Positions 2,410 to 13,248 of a DNA stretch of 15,945 nt are shown here, in pieces. The translations under genes and the position numbers were made by a program. The notes under the pieces are model-generated. The model was not told the DNA's origin, searched no databases, and saw only the letters and a program-made list of their open reading frames with translations. Source of the stretch: an uncultured Deinococcales bacterium (GTDB taxonomy: Bacteria > Deinococcota > Deinococci > Deinococcales > JAAFIG01); assembly GCA_964244895.1 (NCBI GenBank), contig CAXTKV010000121.1, positions 1-15,945 on the forward strand. Direction: 5' to 3'. The stretch's first letter is position 1. Every line of letters begins with the position of its first letter.

Positions 2410-3627
2410 GTGACGGCCTTTCTGGAACTCGCGCTGGTGCTGGGCGCGATCGTGCTGGGCGCGAAACTCTCCGGCTACGCCGCGTCCAGGGTCGGGCAAC
2501 CGATGGTCGTCGGCGAAATCGCGTTCGGTCTGATCCTGGGGCCGACCGCGCTCAATTTGCTCGGCTGGAACGGGTTCTCACACGCGGGCACGACCGCCGA
2601 AGTCGTGCACCTGCTGGCGGAACTCGGCGTGCTGTTGCTGATGTTCCTGGCGGGATTGGAAACCGATCTGGTCGCCATGCGAAAAGTCGGCGTTCCGGCG
2701 CTGAACACGGCCATCGGTGGCGTGATCGTGCCGTTTCTGGGCGGTTGGGCGCTCTCGAGCGCCATCGGCTTGCCGAGCGCTGAAAGCATCTTCATCGGCA
2801 CGGTTCTGACCGCCACCAGCGTCAGCATCAGCGCCCAAACCCTGATCGAACTGGGCAAATTGCGATCCAAGGAGGGCATGACGATCCTGGGCGCCGCCGT
2901 GATCGACGACGTGATCGGCATTCTGATGCTGTCCGTGGTGGTGGCGCTGTTCGGCAGCGGCGGGGCCGCACCGGTGAGCGTCTGGTTGGTAGCGCTCAAG
3001 ATGGTCGCCTTTTTTGCGCTCGGGATGCTGCTGGCTCGGCCCGCCAGGGCGTTCGTGCAGGGCTTCTCGAGGCTGCCCGTATCCGAACCCCTGCTGGCCG
3101 GAAGCATCGTGGTGGCGCTGGTATACGCCTTCGGTGCGGAAGTGCTGGGCGGCGTGGCTGCGATCACGGGCGCGTACCTGGCGGGCGTGATCCTGGGTCA
3201 GTTGGGCAGCAAACGCGAACTCGAGGAGAAAGCCCGAGCGCTCATTTACGCGCTGTTCGTACCAATTTTTTTCGTGGACATCGGGTTGGGCGCAAACCTG
3301 CGGGACGCGCTCGGTGGGCCGCTGCTGGGCTTCGGGATCGGCATCGTGGTGATCGCGCTGGTCGGCAAGGTGATTGGCGCGGGTGCGGGCGCGCTCGTCT
3401 CCAGGTTCAGCCTCGCGGAATCCTTGCGGGTCGGCACGGGCATGATTTCCAGGGGCGAGGTCGGGTTGATCGTGGCCGGAATCGGTGTGCAGCGCGGGTT
3501 GATCAACCGAGATGTCTTTTCGATCATGGTTTTGATGGTCGTGATTTCCACGCTGGTCGCGCCCGTGCTGTTGCGGCTGAGTTTCCCGAAGACCGCGCCG
3601 CCCGAGCCTGCCGCCGCGAGCGAATAA
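2410..3627 (+). CDS. CPA2-family cation:proton antiporter (NapA/GerN-like), no C-terminal RCK domain
   Basis: Motifs P.VVGEI..G.ILGP, LLMFLAGLETD, TATSVSIS, AAVIDDVIG, FVPIFFV.IG, GMISRGEVGLI. GTG 2410 chosen because GGGG lies at 2401-2404; the ORF-track start at 2359 overlaps the upstream gene. Confidence 0.93.
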   Translation: MTAFLELALVLGAIVLGAKLSGYAASRVGQPMVVGEIAFGLILGPTALNLLGWNGFSHAGTTAEVVHLLAELGVLLLMFLAGLETDLVAMRKVGVPALNTAIGGVIVPFLGGWALSSAIGLPSAESIFIGTVLTATSVSISAQTLIELGKLRSKEGMTILGAAVIDDVIGILMLSVVVALFGSGGAAPVSVWLVALKMVAFFALGMLLARPARAFVQGFSRLPVSEPLLAGSIVVALVYAFGAEVLGGVAAITGAYLAGVILGQLGSKRELEEKARALIYALFVPIFFVDIGLGANLRDALGGPLLGFGIGIVVIALVGKVIGAGAGALVSRFSLAESLRVGTGMISRGEVGLIVAGIGVQRGLINRDVFSIMVLMVVISTLVAPVLLRLSFPKTAPPEPAAASE

Positions 3628-6702: not shown

Positions 6703-7773
6703 TCAGCTTCCGCCCGGAATGCCCGCCTCCTCGAAGGTCATCATCTCGCTCAGGGTACGGGCGGCAGCCTCGAGGAGCGGCATGGCCAGCAGCGCGCCCG
6801 TGCCCTCGCCCAGCCGCAAGCGCAGGTCGAACAACGGCTCCAGGTGCAGATGCTCGAGTTGCGCCACGTGCCCCGGTTCCTGCGAGACGTGCGAGGCCGT
6901 CAGGAATGCGCCGACCTTCGGGTTCGCGGCGACTGCGACCAGCGCCGCCGCACCCGCGATGAAGCCGTCCACCACGACCGGCACGCGCAACGCCGCGCCC
7001 TGAAGCATCACGCCCGCCATGGCCGCAATTTCCAAGCCGCCCAGGTGCTCTAAGATGCCCAACCCATCCGTGGCTTCCAGCCCCGCGTTCCGGGCGCGCT
7101 CCAGAGCGCGTTCCACGGCGCGCACTTTTCGTTCCAGCGCGTCGTCCTGCACGCCCGTGCCGCGTCCCGTCACGGCGCGGGGCTCGAGTCCCGTGATGAG
7201 GGCCGTGATCGCCGCGCTGGGCGTCGTGTTGCCGATGCCCATGTCGCCCGCCGCGATCAGGGTCGCGCCGTCTCTGATGGCTTCCTGCGCCGCCTGAGCG
7301 CCGAGCATGATGGCCTGCACCGCCTCGAGCCTGGTCATGGCGGGTTCCACGGCGATGTTGCCCGCGCCGCGCCGCACCTTGCCCGCGATCAGGTCGGGAT
7401 GATCGGGCAGGTCAGCGTCAACGCCTGCGTCCAGCACGTAGACCCTCGCGCCGACCGCGCGCGCGATCGCGCTCACCGCCGCGCCGCCGCCCAGGAAGTT
7501 CGTGACCATCGCGGGCGTGACGCTGGACGGGAAGGCGCTCACGCCCTCACTGGTGACGCCGTGATCCCCGGCGCAGACGATCACGGCTTTGCCACGAATC
7601 ACGGGTTTTTCAGTGCCGTACACGCCCGCCAGCCAGACGGACAGGTCTTCCAGGCGACCCAACGAACCGGGCGGTTTGGTCAGTTGAGCTTGCCGACTGA
7701 GCGCGCGGGTTCTGGCGTCGGGGTCGGGTTCGGTGATGCTCGAGAGGAGGTTTTGCAGCGCGGCGTCGTTCAT
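6703..7773 (-). CDS. cobT: Nicotinate-nucleotide--dimethylbenzimidazole phosphoribosyltransferase
   Basis: LTKPPGSLGRLE, AGDHGV..EGVSAFP, GDMGIGNTT, GRGTG, VDGFI, LRLGEGTGA. ATG 7773 has SD AGGGG; the ORF-track start at 7803 lies inside a repeat. Confidence 0.97.
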   Translation of the reverse strand: MNDAALQNLLSSITEPDPDARTRALSRQAQLTKPPGSLGRLEDLSVWLAGVYGTEKPVIRGKAVIVCAGDHGVTSEGVSAFPSSVTPAMVTNFLGGGAAVSAIARAVGARVYVLDAGVDADLPDHPDLIAGKVRRGAGNIAVEPAMTRLEAVQAIMLGAQAAQEAIRDGATLIAAGDMGIGNTTPSAAITALITGLEPRAVTGRGTGVQDDALERKVRAVERALERARNAGLEATDGLGILEHLGGLEIAAMAGVMLQGAALRVPVVVDGFIAGAAALVAVAANPKVGAFLTASHVSQEPGHVAQLEHLHLEPLFDLRLRLGEGTGALLAMPLLEAAARTLSEMMTFEEAGIPGGS

Positions 7774-7788
7774 AGGTTCCCCTGTGAA

Positions 7789-7830
7789 AACACCGTCCAG
7801 CACGCATTCAACGATTCAGGTGCTGGACGG
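7789..7830. repeat. Palindromic intergenic element, family A, between cobU and cobT
   Basis: AACACCGTCCAGCACGC (7789-7805) / GTGCTGGACGG (7820-7830); the right arm is cut short 1 nt from the cobU stop. Confidence 0.9.
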
Positions 7831-7831
7831 C

Positions 7832-8359
7832 CTATCTGAGTTTGATGGGCAATCCCGAGACGATCAGAAACGCCTCGGTCGCGGCCCGCGCGACCATCTG
7901 ATTGGCGCGACCCAGCGCATCCCGGAAGGCGCGCCCGAGCGGGTATTCGGGCACGATGCCGGAACCGACTTCGTTGCTGACGACGATCAGGGCGCGATCT
8001 CGAGACTGCTGGATGTTCAGGAGCGCAGCCACCCGTTCGAGAATCGCGTCTTCCTCGAGCGCTTCGTGGTCGGCATCACCGAGCATCAAATTCGAGACGA
8101 GGATCGAGAGGCAGTCCAGCACGACCGCACCGGATGCACCCTTAAGGGCGGCGGGAACATCGTGCGGTTCCTCGAGCGTGATCCAGTCGGCGGGGCGCTC
8201 CAGCTTGTGCCGCCTGATGCGGTCGCGCATTTCGGCGTCGAAGGCTTGCGCGGTAGCGATGAAGGTCACGGGTTGAACGAACGCGCTGGCTTTCTCGAGC
8301 GCAAACGCGGACTTGCCGGATCGCGCGCCGCCCGTGACGAAGATCAGTTCATTCGTCAT
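7832..8359 (-). CDS. cobU: Bifunctional adenosylcobinamide kinase / adenosylcobinamide-phosphate guanylyltransferase
   Basis: VTGGARSGKS.FA, FIATA...D.EM..RI..H...RP..W.T.EEP, LDCL, VSNEVG.GIVP....GR.FRD.LG.ANQ; start at MTNEL. Confidence 0.96.
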   Translation of the reverse strand: MTNELIFVTGGARSGKSAFALEKASAFVQPVTFIATAQAFDAEMRDRIRRHKLERPADWITLEEPHDVPAALKGASGAVVLDCLSILVSNLMLGDADHEALEEDAILERVAALLNIQQSRDRALIVVSNEVGSGIVPEYPLGRAFRDALGRANQMVARAATEAFLIVSGLPIKLR

Positions 8360-8684
8360 AGCGCCCATCCATCGGCGGTTCCAGCCCCGCGTGCAAGGCT
8401 CGCGCGAGATTGATCGTGCGCGGGTCATCCATGCCCGAAAACCACGCCTCTCGCAACTCGCCAGCTCGCCTGAAGTAACACGCGACCGTCGGCCCGAACT
8501 GGCACGCGCCCAGGCAACCGGATTCCGTCAGGCGCAGGTTTCCGCCCGCGCTGTAATACGTTAGTTTCTCGCGCTCCAGGCCGTTCCAGGCGGCCTGAAA
8601 CAGCAATCTGGAACCTCTGGATTCGCACTGCGGGCCGGTGCAGATCATGACGTGCGCTCGGGTTTTGAAAAAGTTGGGTTTCAT
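8349..8684 (-). CDS. Thioredoxin-like [2Fe-2S] ferredoxin
   Basis: HVMICTGPQC...GS and TESGCLGACQFGP (four Cys in Trx-like Fd spacing); ATG 8684 with SD GAAGGTG. Confidence 0.85.
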   Translation of the reverse strand: MKPNFFKTRAHVMICTGPQCESRGSRLLFQAAWNGLEREKLTYYSAGGNLRLTESGCLGACQFGPTVACYFRRAGELREAWFSGMDDPRTINLARALHAGLEPPMDGRYDE

Positions 8685-8698
8685 TTCACCTTCCAGAT

Positions 8699-8753
8699 GC
8701 ACCGTTCCAGACAGTGGTTTTTGTATCTCGAGAGCACCGTCCGGGACGGTCTT
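8699..8753. repeat. Palindromic intergenic element, family A, degenerate/nested copy
   Basis: ACCGTTCCAGAC (8701-8712) pairs 10/12 with GTCCGGGACGGT (8739-8750); an inner CTCGAGAGCACCGTCC-G-GGACGGT forms a collapsed second palindrome. Confidence 0.7.
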
Positions 8754-8804
8754 TCTTTGCACCCGCCCGCCGCGAACTCGAGCGCGTCGTGTCGGTGTTC
8801 GCGG

Positions 8805-9692
8805 CTACTTCAACTCCGGGTGCAGCGCCATCGCGATCGCTCGCAGCGCGACCGGCAGGCGCGGGCCGGGACGCACGATGGCGTCGTTGATCTCTTCAGG
8901 GAAGACCAGCACGCGCTTGTTTTTGACGGCAGCGATGCTCGCCCAGCCGGGACGCTTCAGCACGTCGTCCAGACTCACGCCGAGGATCGCGGCGGGGTTG
9001 GCGTTGACCACCAGTTCCGGGCTGATCTGCGGGAACTCCCCGAGCCCGGCGGGGATCACGTTCAGCCCGCCCGCTTTGGTCATGAGCGTACCGATGAAAC
9101 TGTTCTGGCCCGCCGCGTAGGGCGTGGGGTCGAGTTCGAAATAGGCCGTGACTTTCGGCAGGGCTCGCACGCTGGCCTCGATTTTGCCCAGTTCGGCGCG
9201 CATCCCGGAGATCAGTTTCACGGCTCGCGTCTCGCGGTTGGTGATCTTGCCGATCACGGCGATTTTCTCGAAGACCTCGTTGTAGGTCTGGGCCGTGCCG
9301 CCGTAGACGGTCAATCCAGCCTGGGTGAGCTTTTGAACCAATGGGCTCGAGGTGGATTCGTCCGCCAGCACCAGGTCGGGTTTCAGGCCGATAATCGCTT
9401 CGAGGTTCGGCTCGAAACCGGAACCGACCTTCTGTATTTTGTCCGTTTCCGCTTTCGGGTAATTGCTGTACTCATCGATCCCGACGAGTTTGCCGCCCGC
9501 GCCGATGGCGAAGAGCGTCTCCGTGTGGCTGGGCAGCATCGCCACGATGCGTCTGGGTTCATTTTGAATCGTGATTTTGCGCCCCAGGTCGTCCGTGACG
9601 CTCAACGGGTAGGTGGTCGCGGCGGCCAGGCCGGACAGCGCCAGGCTCGAGAGGGCGGTCAGGGCGATCAGGGCGGGTTTCAGACGGTTCAT
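8805..9692 (-). CDS. btuF: Cobalamin ABC transporter substrate-binding protein (BtuF-like)
   Basis: Signal peptide, then [60 protein letters not shown] before ATG 9692. Cobalamin specificity inferred from context. Confidence 0.88.
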
Positions 9693-9732
9693 GGTTGCTC
9701 CTGAGGGCTCGAGCCTGAACGACTCGAGCGGT

Positions 9733-10440
9733 TCAATGGGTGGCGAGTACCGCGACCAGCGCGGCGATCTCGGATGTTTCGATGATTGCGCCGTACACGT
9801 CGCCAGAGATGCCGCCACCCAACCGGCGCGCGGCGAACCCGGCGACCAGCAGCGCGCCGAGAACTGCGGCAATCGCGGCGATCGGCGCGAGCAATACGGC
9901 TGGAACGGCGAATGCCAGACCGACGGGCCAGTTGCCTTCTCGGGCTCGCGCCCCCAGAGATTCCGCGCGGGCGGCAGGAAAAATGTTCATCGGCAGCAGC
10001 ACCGCGCCCCTGGCCAGCACGGGCGCAACCAGCAAACCGAGCGTGCCCGGATGGGCTTCCAGGGCGCTCCATTTGAGCAGCAGCGCGACCACACCAACCG
10101 CCAGTCCGAACGCGCCGATGTGAACGTCAGACAGAATCTCGAGCCGATGCGCTGGGCTTTTAGCGGCCAGGAGCGCATCGGCGGAATCCACCAGCCCGTC
10201 AAAGTGCAGCATCCCCGTCAGGCCCAACCAGACCGCCAGCGTCAAGGCCGCACCCACGCCCGATGGCAGCCCCGAGGTGATCCAGGCGGTCAGCACCAGC
10301 AGCAGTCCGAGCGTCCAGCCGACGGCGGGATAAAAACCGCTGGCGTAGCGGAACTCGCCGTCTTTCACCTCGTTGACGTGCGAAAAAGGCAGGGTCGTCA
10401 AGAAGGTGTGAGCCAGGTGCAGGCCGCGCAGGACGGTCAT
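9733..10440 (-). CDS. cobS: Adenosylcobinamide-GDP ribazoletransferase (cobalamin synthase)
   Basis: [50 protein letters not shown]. Confidence 0.95.
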
Positions 10441-10975
10441 CTCATCCCCCGCAGACGGGGCGCAGGTAGCCTTGGGTCATGCGAATCTGGACACGGTTGG
10501 TCTGCGCCCTGGCGCTCGGTGGTGGTCTGGCGCTCGAGATGCCGGTGGAGATCAAGCTCGGCAAGTCCTTCGCGCTCGAGACGAAAGGCGGCGCGTCCGT
10601 GGCGCACTACAGTCCTGCGAACTGGAACCTGGAATTCGCGCGGGTTAAACACGATTCGCGCTGTCCCAGAAAAGTCGTATGCGTCTGGGCGGGGGATGCC
10701 GAACTGGAGTTCGTGGCGTATCAGAACCGCGCCCAGAAACGTTTTTCCTTGCACACCAACCTCGAGCCGCGAGCGGCGCTCGCGTTGGGCTACCGCCTGA
10801 AGCTCGTCAAGCTCGAGCCGGAACGCGGGGGCGGCGCGCCGCTCGCGTACCGCGCGATGCTGGTGCTCGAGAAACCCTGAGCGCCGCCACACCTCGCGCT
10901 GGCTCATCGGCCCCGTCACGTGCTGGCTCATCGGCCATGTCACGTGCTGGTTCATCGGCTCCGTCACGTGCTGGT

Positions 10976-10979
<4 letters not shown>
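10437..10979 (-). CDS. Candidate antisense 'bridge' ORF coupled to btuD and cobS; translation unproven
   Basis: Its ATG overlaps the btuD TGA (10976-10979) and its TGA overlaps the cobS ATG (10437-10440); no recognisable family; codon-aligned antisense to 10479..10880. Confidence 0.3.
10467..10472 (+). promoter_or_regulatory. -10 box of a probable leaderless promoter, antisense to the B12 operon
   Basis: TAGCCT, then 6 nt, then ATG at 10479. Confidence 0.6.
10479..10880 (+). CDS. Small exported protein of unknown function with a DSRCPxxxxCVWAG motif
   Basis: N-terminal signal-like segment [18 protein letters not shown]; motif [16 protein letters not shown], which I recognise from widespread uncharacterised secreted proteins; own -10 box. 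Confidence 0.8.
   Translation: MRIWTRLVCALALGGGLALEMPVEIKLGKSFALETKGGASVAHYSPANWNLEFARVKHDSRCPRKVVCVWAGDAELEFVAYQNRAQKRFSLHTNLEPRAALALGYRLKLVKLEPERGGGAPLAYRAMLVLEKP

Positions 10980-10984
<5 letters not shown>
10897..10984. repeat. 24-bp tandem repeat, about 3.7 copies
   Basis: Units start at 10897, 10921, 10945 and 10969 (partial); consensus TGCTGGYTCATCGGCYMYGTCACG. Confidence 0.97.
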
Positions 10985-11728
<744 letters not shown>

Positions 11729-11747
11729 CTCGAGCGCCAACGGCGCG

Positions 11748-11806
11748 AAAACCGTCCAGGACGTATGTTATCGAGTATCGCATCCATACCGTGTAGAACG
11801 GTGTTC
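11748..11806. repeat. Palindromic intergenic element, family A, degenerate copy
   Basis: AAAACCGTCCAGGACG (11748-11763) / CGTGTAGAACGGTGTTC (11790-11806), between btuC and btuD. Confidence 0.7.
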
Positions 11807-11867
11807 CTCTGCGGCACGATCCAGCGCGCCGTCCGATGCACCTCAGCTCGAGGCCGCGCAGGACGCA

Positions 11868-12953
11868 TCACCCGCGCCTCCGCAGCAACCACAAGAAAAA
11901 CGGCCCGCCGATCAAGGTCGTGACCATCCCGACGGGCAACTCAGCCGGTCGCGTCAGGGTGCGCGCGCCCAGATCGGCCACCACCAGCAGGCTCGCGCCA
12001 GCCAGGGCTGAAGCGGGAATCAACCAGCCGTGATTCGGGCGACCCAGACGCCGCATGACGTGCGGCGCGACCAGACCCACGAAGCCGATGATGCCCGCAA
12101 AAGAAACCGCCGCCGCCGCCATCAGGCTCGAGGCGATCACCACGCCCAGTTTGACCCAGACGAGTTTCAAACCCAGCGTCCGCGCGGTGTCCTCGCCGAG
12201 TTGAAGGGCATCCAGCGCCCTGGAAAAACCCATCAGCGCCGCGAAACCGATCAGCGCGAACGGCAGCACCGCCAGCACCTCGGCCCAGCCCACCAGCGAC
12301 AGGTTGCCGAGCGTCCACGAGAAGACCGCGCGCATCCGGTCGGCGTCGCGCAACTGGATGTAGGTCGTGATCGCGGTCAGGATCGAGCCGACGATCACGC
12401 CCGCCAGGATCAGCGCGCCCGTGCCCGATTGGGACGCGCCCTGACGCGCCGCGCCCGAGAGCCAGACGGTCAGCAACACCCCAACGAGCGCACCCAGGAA
12501 CGCGAACGCCGGAACCAGGCCCGAGGCGTTCCCCCTCGAGACGATCGTGGCCGCGAACGCCGCCGCCTGCGATCCCGCCGCGAAGATCGCTACCGTCGCG
12601 CCCAGGGCCGCGCCCGAAGCCACGCCCGTCAGGTACGGGTCGGCCAGCGGATTCCTGAACAAACCCTGCATGGCCGCGCCGCAGGCCGCCAGGGCCGCGC
12701 CCACCAACGCGCCGAACACCACGCGCGGCAAGCGGATGTTCCAGACGATCGCCTCGAGCCCCTCCAGGGATTGCCCCATCAGGCCGTGCCAGACGGCGCG
12801 CAGGGTCGTATCCGGATCGATCCCGAGCGTACCGTTGCCGACCGCGATCAGCATCGCCGCGACCAAGACCACTGCCGCCACGACCAGCGCCAACGCTGCC
12901 TTTGAGCCTCGAGGCCGCGACCGGATTGAACGAATCGGTGAGTCTGATGTCAC
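11868..12953 (-). CDS. btuC: Cobalamin ABC transporter permease (BtuC/FecCD family)
   Basis: IVWNIRLPRV, QGLFRNPLADPY.TGVASGAALG, LGEDTARTLG, GIIGFVGLVAPH, ELPVG.VT.LIGGPFF. GTG 12953 has SD AGGGG; the ORF-track start at 13130 lies inside the riboswitch. Confidence 0.93.
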   Translation of the reverse strand: MTSDSPIRSIRSRPRGSKAALALVVAAVVLVAAMLIAVGNGTLGIDPDTTLRAVWHGLMGQSLEGLEAIVWNIRLPRVVFGALVGAALAACGAAMQGLFRNPLADPYLTGVASGAALGATVAIFAAGSQAAAFAATIVSRGNASGLVPAFAFLGALVGVLLTVWLSGAARQGASQSGTGALILAGVIVGSILTAITTYIQLRDADRMRAVFSWTLGNLSLVGWAEVLAVLPFALIGFAALMGFSRALDALQLGEDTARTLGLKLVWVKLGVVIASSLMAAAAVSFAGIIGFVGLVAPHVMRRLGRPNHGWLIPASALAGASLLVVADLGARTLTRPAELPVGMVTTLIGGPFFLWLLRRRG

Positions 12954-13047: not shown

Positions 13048-13097
13048 GAAAACCCCTTTCGGCGAGAGGTGCGCCCCGAGCGTGTCTCGAGGTCGCG

Positions 13098-13212
13098 GTC
13101 CCTGGCAGGCATTCGGGCTCGGGTTTTCAACCCACACCGTTGCGCTACAGCGCCGGAATCTCACCGGACTTCCCCACTTTAAGCTCGAGCCTTGCGGGTC
13201 GAGCACCAGAGC
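13098..13212 (-). ncRNA. Cobalamin riboswitch aptamer (compact form)
   Basis: Minus strand: CTCTGGTG..TTAAAGTGGGGAAGTCCGGTGAGATTCCGGCGCTGTAGCGCAACGGT..GAGCCCGAATGCCTGCCAGGG; contains the GGGAA motif, the P4 T-loop, GCAACGGT and the B12 box; upstream of btu/cob genes. Confidence 0.93.
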
Positions 13213-13218
13213 GCCGTG

Positions 13219-13248
13219 AGACTACACCCGCCCCGCAGAACGGGTCAA
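13219..13248 (-). promoter_or_regulatory. Probable promoter of the B12 operon
   Basis: TTGACC-N18-TAGTCT, ending about 7 nt before the riboswitch P1. Confidence 0.7.

Follow-up and report, generated by a model that had tools for sequence, protein, structure and literature searches.

The btuD and cobS genes of a cobalamin operon are joined by an open frame that runs antisense through a complete, inverted gene and overlaps both neighbours by four nucleotides. Its conservation among relatives indicates that this arrangement is real and selected, and the frame is probably a throw-away frame that likely just carries ribosomes across the insert. Throughout the text, the window is the whole 15,945-nucleotide stretch of DNA that was analysed, G000 is the genome of the window, X is the plus-strand gene at 10479-10880, and the bridge is the minus-strand ORF from 10979 to 10437.

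Results

An open frame antisense to X in the cobalamin operon

The operon order in G000 is btuC-btuD-[X]-cobS-btuF-ferredoxin-cobU-cobT, in which same-strand, functionally linked genes flank the opposite-strand X. The main features are as follows.

13087-13225, minus strand: cobalamin riboswitch at the operon head (Rfam RF00174, 43.8 bits; gathering score 31.5)
11868-12893, minus strand: btuC-like permease, first operon gene in G000 (FecCD, PF01032)
10976-11728, minus strand: btuD-like ABC ATPase (ABC_tran, PF00005); start likely the ATG at 11728, longest ORF from a TTG at 11740
10886-10985, no strand: 24-bp tandem repeat, about four copies, between btuD and the X stop; it lengthens the bridge in frame, with the TGA junction repeated
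10976-10979, minus strand: ATGA, −4 overlap of btuD stop and bridge start
10437-10979, minus strand: bridge, 180 codons from the ATG at 10979 to the TGA at 10437, codon-aligned antisense to X
10479-10880, plus strand: X, 133 aa, hydrophobic N-terminus, DSRCPxxxxCVWAGDA motif with two invariant cysteines
10467-10472, plus strand: TANNNT −10 element six bases upstream of the X ATG; predicted leaderless promoter
10437-10440, minus strand: ATGA, −4 overlap of bridge stop and cobS start
9733-10440, minus strand: cobS, cobalamin-5-phosphate synthase (CobS, PF02654); sole in-frame start is the ATG at 10440
6703-9692, minus strand: downstream operon genes btuF, 2Fe-2S thioredoxin-like ferredoxin, cobU and cobT

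A preliminary description of this DNA had reported the 180-codon minus-strand ORF with ATGA at both ends and the plus-strand gene inside it; all of its coordinates hold, as do its names for the flanking btu/cob genes, which match CobS, ABC_tran and FecCD and, elsewhere in the operon, Peripla_BP_2, CobU and DBI_PRT. Because X lies codon to codon within the bridge, any stop in the bridge corresponds to a TTA, CTA or TCA codon in X. The repeated N-terminal peptide of the bridge is the product of the 24-bp tandem repeat, of which no other copy was found in the G000 genome. No terminator-like sites were found on the minus strand from 11129 to 10351, and a sigma-70 scan, which is ill-suited to leaderless promoters, returned no site.

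Coding signature and conservation mark X as a real gene. A dicodon model trained on G000 scored X at +45 and the bridge at −16.6; homologues of X share 59-94% identity, matches occur in 84 of 364 genomes of the phylum, and dN is 0.088 against a dS of 0.66 in the genus g4. The product of X, which is likely exported judging by its N-terminus, matched no Pfam or NCBIfam family, and its Atlas matches were merely 'hypothetical' (score 0.86). X is single-copy in G000. The TANNNT element recurs at the same spacing before X in relatives; this motif, described at leaderless starts (PMC12340547), stands at 6 nt from 177 of 547 unambiguous divergent starts in G000 and marks the commonest start type there. 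Leaderless starts of this type suggest that G000 belongs to the Deinococcota.

Frame, junctions and phase are kept in relatives with X before cobS

Our comparison set was a family of 19 genomes. X lies inverted behind btuD in 10 of them, from four genera, and in all 10 the aligned antisense frame of X begins with a −4 overlap on the btuD stop (start ATG in eight, GTG in two). RTG is present at the btuD stop in 10/10 despite differing last codons, compared with 223 of 1402 convergent gene ends in G000.

The order btuD-X-cobS occurs in G000, G006, G001 and G002, which belong to three genera and share one ancestral insertion. As had been predicted for relatives that carry the insert, all four have an uninterrupted frame with a −4 overlap to each neighbour; it is 180, 150, 161 and 330 codons long, respectively. 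The junction of bridge stop and cobS start is ATGA in two of these genomes and GTGA in two; the cobS start is the sole in-frame start in three, and in G002 it is the one of three candidates that matches the family N-terminus. The G002 bridge crosses two tandem, diverged X paralogues. In that genome (locus L004), X is tandemly duplicated, and the diverged second copy lacks the DSRC motif and keeps both cysteines.

All nine spacers in the four genomes are multiples of three (99 and 39; 9 and 27; 21 and 45; 6, 72 and 159 nt), against even gap phases in G000 at large (convergent 438/472/466, divergent 56/48/63). If the seven in-phase spacer length changes were independent, their probability would be (1/3)^7, or about 5 × 10−4. 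Synonymous sites between the genera are near saturation (pS 0.57-0.75), and with G000 left out, X contains no TTA, CTA or TCA codon where 6.8 were expected (P = 0.0012). Other A-ending codons in X of the cobS lineages number 23 (28.8 expected), TTG 23 (13.7 expected) and CTT/TCT/AGT 15 (9.4 expected); the baselines for the relatives were 5,000-16,000 codons per genome from script-called genes. The 110 non-coding spacer codons are likewise stop-free (P about 0.07). In X paralogues outside the operon, nine TTA/CTA/TCA codons were counted against 8.5 expected, and 25 homologous genes in other families hold 0-13 such codons each, with none in 6 of the 25.

A contig from read data that covers 9742-10926 differs at 108 positions and has one 6-nt deletion in X; none of the 10 changes inside the bridge that were checked makes a stop, and we did not count this contig as a fifth genome. 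Among 80 loci from a metagenome scan, none had a btu/cob context, with a 31% ABC ATPase nearby in two. What these relatives conserve is the frame with its phase, its two −4 junctions and its avoidance of stops; the peptide is not conserved.

Relatives without X and the genus g4

The preliminary description had further predicted that relatives without the insert would have btuD directly overlapping cobS. This is borne out in G005, the sole relative with btuD and cobS adjacent without X, in which the two genes overlap by ATGA; X was not found in this assembly, which is 87% complete. G005 is the sister of G001 on the btuD tree (97/97), and because X is present in g1, g3 and g4, the simpler reading is that loss of X in G005 restored direct btuD-cobS coupling. 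In 5 of 7 loci of the genus g5, an ATGA overlap joins btuD to cobU. Coupling of btuD to the cob gene behind it is therefore the normal state.

In g4, X is followed by btuF, which has its own SD. The start junction at btuD is kept in 6/6, and the frame crosses X in three complete loci; in a fourth, cut by the contig end, it does so as far as the sequence reaches. It is broken in 2 of 6 by a TAA about ten codons before the X start, near the frame end, and otherwise ends about 60 nt short of btuF, leaving the end uncoupled. Across five complete g4 loci, TTA/CTA/TCA make up 3 of 134 Leu and Ser codons in X, compared with 25 of 267 in btuD and 26 of 277 in btuF (Fisher 0.004, for kin that are not independent). 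This codon test is weakened because other A-ending codons are also low in g4 X (32 against 50.8 expected). The proposal that the antisense frame is kept open to carry ribosomes over the insert is supported by the four btuD-X-cobS genomes, and carriage is likely; the end junction is absent in g4.

Some further arrangements were seen at related loci. In L148 (G014), at about 2050-2512, the inverted gene behind btuD is not X but another one, with its TAG overlapping the btuD TAG; the aligned frame antisense to it has about 155 open codons but no start codon. L112 (G006) has no cobalamin riboswitch above the gathering score upstream of the operon, unlike most relatives.

The bridge peptide resembles any antisense frame

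The bridge peptide matched no Pfam or NCBIfam family, and a database search yielded no homologue of it among 604 candidates. In g4, dS is not reduced in X (0.66; neighbours 0.57 and 0.75), and antisense identity is 0.665 for the bridge and 0.684 and 0.64 for control antisense frames. By these measures the peptide is unconstrained and drifts like any antisense frame, and the earlier designation of a fully overlapping gene pair fails for want of purifying selection on the antisense product.

Chance level within the G000 genome

The preliminary description had cautioned that a codon-aligned antisense frame is often open by chance, and rightly so: 328 of 609 G000 genes of 110-160 codons (54%) contain no TTA, CTA or TCA and hence have an open aligned antisense frame. 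It had also taken the double ATGA junction as the real signal. However, NTGA occurs at 2094 of 4067 G000 starts (51%), so that the ATGA at cobS alone is uninformative; across lineages, the real signal is phase together with openness.

Among 297 confident triples of gene, inverted gene and gene in G000, RTGA is present at the first stop in 45; the inverted gene is spanned in five of these, and one, btuD-X-cobS, ends on the next start. In G000, 1 of 459 triples is doubly coupled; the 800-kb samples taken from G006 and G063 contain no such case among 68 and 79 triples, respectively. A first triple scan gave twenty further candidate rows; the ten other −4 cases that were inspected proved to be gene-calling artefacts or to end far from the next start. 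The G000 picture alone could be a rare accident; the excess over chance lies in the cross-genome pattern.

Shorter relay frames

Three shorter frames lie in spacers of the same operon.

11725-11871, minus strand: second relay frame, 48 codons, from the btuC stop (GTGA) to the btuD ATG (ATGA) over a 139-nt spacer
9689-9736, minus strand: frame of 15 codons with a weak TTG start at the cobS stop, ending on the btuF ATG (ATGA)
7770-7835, minus strand: frame of 21 codons in the cobU-cobT spacer, no start codon, ending on the next start by ATGA

We scanned 1796 same-strand gene pairs in G000 that are 10-400 nt apart. The 238 pairs whose first stop reads RTGA and whose second start reads NTGA have gap phases of 60/125/53, and 100 spacers are fully bridged compared with 30 and 25 in phase-shift controls (p = 2 × 10−15). 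With unambiguous starts alone, 57 of 130 are bridged, against 20 and 8. The coding score is negative for 95 of the 100 bridged spacer frames. No phase bias was seen for frames that begin with TTG (35/33/39) or lack a start codon (181/206/200), and the 15-codon cobS-btuF frame may be a chance product, as TTG-started frames lack the bias genome-wide.

G000 also carries a palindromic REP-like element with about 1660 core copies, 1537 of them intergenic, compared with 4 per 800 kb in G006 and G063; copies in the window lie near 3627, 3672, 6701, 7789 and 13482. Relay frames number 55 in repeat-holding spacers (controls 13 and 6) and 45 in repeat-free spacers (controls 17 and 19). The short-spacer excess was not seen in 800-kb samples with few eligible pairs from G006 (5 against 3 and 5) and G063 (7 against 2 and 4), nor in pooled g4 loci (1 against 2 and 0). 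Across inverted genes, doubly coupled frames are rare, as the single G000 triple illustrates.

Signals at the cobS start

One further feature precedes cobS.

10447-10460, minus strand: CCCCG/CGGGG hairpin with 5-bp arms, covering the G-rich SD-like tract of cobS; at chance level

The arms of this hairpin are present as first described, but the proposed fold that hides the SD is unsupported: the region folds like its shuffles (z = −0.10, 90 of 200 shuffles as good), and the hairpin is not common to relatives. A hairpin-gated SD of cobS was accordingly rejected. The anti-SD duplex of the cobS SD-like site has −8.6 kcal/mol in G000, −11.4 in G001, −2.7 in G006 and −5.9 in G002, and cobS in G000 and G001 might initiate on its own SD-like site. 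TANNNT at 6 nt before cobS is absent in all four btuD-X-cobS genomes, and none is found anywhere on the operon strand of the G000 bridge; TANNNT hexamers deeper inside the bridges of G006, G001 and G002 may be internal promoters. A rho gene was found in 17 of 18 relatives and was not found in the 91% complete assembly of G000.

The cobS start looks different in other genera. All six g4 genomes (L016, L017, L020-L023) have a 6-codon mini-ORF whose TGA overlaps the cobS start; it begins 1-2 nt past the stop of the upstream gene, and its start codon is kept while its middle is variable. In g5 (L018, L026-L031), TANNNT stands 5-6 nt before the cobS start, and cobS looks leaderless there.

Discussion

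Sequence evolution points to translation of the bridge. A riboswitch-led btu/cob mRNA would run through X, and a ribosome ending btuD would re-initiate at the overlapping AUG, translate a throw-away peptide across X and terminate on the cobS start, where it would then re-initiate or open the start site. The bridge would restore the btuD-to-next-gene coupling that X-less relatives have directly, and its translation would shield 450-990 nt of mRNA from Rho-type polarity or decay, with cover and delivery acting together. Cover is suggested because g4 keeps the start and most of the frame without end coupling, and delivery because the cobS lineages keep the end junction exactly. Because coupling needs an overlap or very short gaps and is lost at gaps of about 20 nt (PMC10666635), and because Rho loads on untranslated RNA (PMC12548453), an insert of 450-990 nt would otherwise cut both.

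Translation might serve as cover alone, shielding the transcript from Rho, decay or duplex cleavage with the X mRNA, while cobS uses its own SD and the end overlap is incidental. The uncoupled end in g4, the SD-like sites before cobS in G000 and G001 and the occurrence in 17 of 18 relatives of Rho, a factor that loads on RNA free of ribosomes (PMC12548453), fit such a reading. We nevertheless regard it as unlikely, given that the end overlap is exact in 4/4 with spacers of 27, 39, 45 and 159 nt, that the g4 mini-ORF ends on the cobS start in 6/6, as if cobS needed an arriving ribosome, and that Rho was not found in G000. Chance and inheritance without any translation are less likely still: the frame would be open by chance and the TGA junctions would be leftovers of insertion into an ATGA overlap. 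Open antisense frames (54%) and NTGA starts (51%) are indeed common in G000, both junctions could be inherited from a coupled ancestor, the triple is the sole one in G000, and the peptide drifts neutrally. Against this stand the seven independent spacer length changes, all in phase, the avoidance of stops (0 against 6.8) despite near-saturated synonymous sites, and RTG at the btuD stop in 10/10 compared with 223/1402 convergent ends.

That the antisense frame encodes a functional protein, which would make it part of a true overlapping gene pair, is very improbable. Although open frame, start and stop are kept across genera, X shows no synonymous constraint, antisense identity equals that of the controls, length varies from 150 to 330 codons, the coding score is negative, and no homologue was found among 604 candidates. 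We give hardly any credence to the open frame being a by-product of a highly expressed X that avoids rare codons. Other A-ending codons are under-used in g4 X (32 against 50.8), which speaks for it, but the cobS lineages use other rare codons near expectation (23 against 28.8; CTT/TCT/AGT 15 against 9.4), spacer phase already contradicts it, and stop-free non-coding spacers and junctions would be left unexplained.

The olg1 and olg2 genes of P. aeruginosa are reportedly antisense overlapping protein genes with product function or purifying selection. The overlap of olg1 with gene 10 in phage Fc02 (PMC9936078) is likewise a full antiparallel overlap within a transcribed unit, but unlike there, neither product function nor purifying selection is detectable in the bridge. 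Similar in this respect are the frame −1 antisense ORFs that avoid TTA, CTA and TCA without protein-level selection (10.1101/724807). The text of that study offers no operon or coupling explanation ('operon', 'coupling' and 'Rho' have 0 occurrences in it), whereas btuD-X-cobS supplies one.

The locus also resembles noncontiguous operons, or excludons, such as menE-menC-MW1733-ytkD-MW1731 of S. aureus (PMC7154746, PMC11034616): an operon holds an interspersed opposite-strand gene with its own promoter, here predicted for X, and the RNAs would overlap fully. In noncontiguous operons, the stretch opposite the inverted gene is described as untranslated, which was called 'intriguing' and put down to uncoupled transcription in Gram-positives (PMC7154746, PMC11034616). 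By contrast, the btuD-cobS stretch is under selection as an open frame and is coupled to both neighbours. Mutual repression of the two RNAs by interference and RNase III, a mark of noncontiguous operons, would in the present case tie X to B12 status. Frames that deliver ribosomes have precedents in the uORFs of leader-peptide reinitiation (PMC4833913) and in MIRU elements, in which a −4-coupled frame prevents an insertion from breaking translation of the next gene (Supply et al. 1997, summarised in PMC12548453). There, as here, the product is immaterial and the frame is coupled at −4 to the downstream start. MIRUs are short, repeated and mobile, however, whereas the carrier at this locus is the antisense of a complete selected gene, 450-990 nt long, single-copy and in a fixed place across four genera; a closer analogue of MIRU is found in the shorter G000 spacer frames, half of which lie over the palindromic repeat. 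Termination-reinitiation at ATGA overlaps (PMC10666635) is alike in that −4 overlaps occur at both ends in 4/4 and unlike in that the middle partner is unconserved. In the literature searched, which included few subscription papers, we found no published bridge across an inverted gene.

We are inclined to a broader conclusion, somewhat more likely to be right than wrong: that bacteria with coupled transcription and translation can keep an operon intact over a backward gene through codon selection for a meaningless translated 'ribosome bridge' coupled at both ends. The B12 operon would be a chromosomal case kept across genera, in a genome with some 60-70 shorter relay frames beyond chance. If true, this would explain in general how polarity is avoided in noncontiguous operons, and it bears on the point, raised in the literature, of how transcription crosses their untranslated middle (PMC11034616). 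It would also account for some long antisense frames that lack stops although no protein is conserved, and it bears on the question, raised for many such frames, of how stop avoidance arises without protein selection (10.1101/724807). The case cautions against taking every antisense ORF that is conserved, or even translated, for a new gene. The locus itself offers natural controls, namely relatives with X, without X, with two X copies and with X before a gene that has its own SD. For the coding sequence of X and its like, the bridge would amount to a third constraint, in which codon choice keeps the opposite strand readable although no functional protein is encoded on it.
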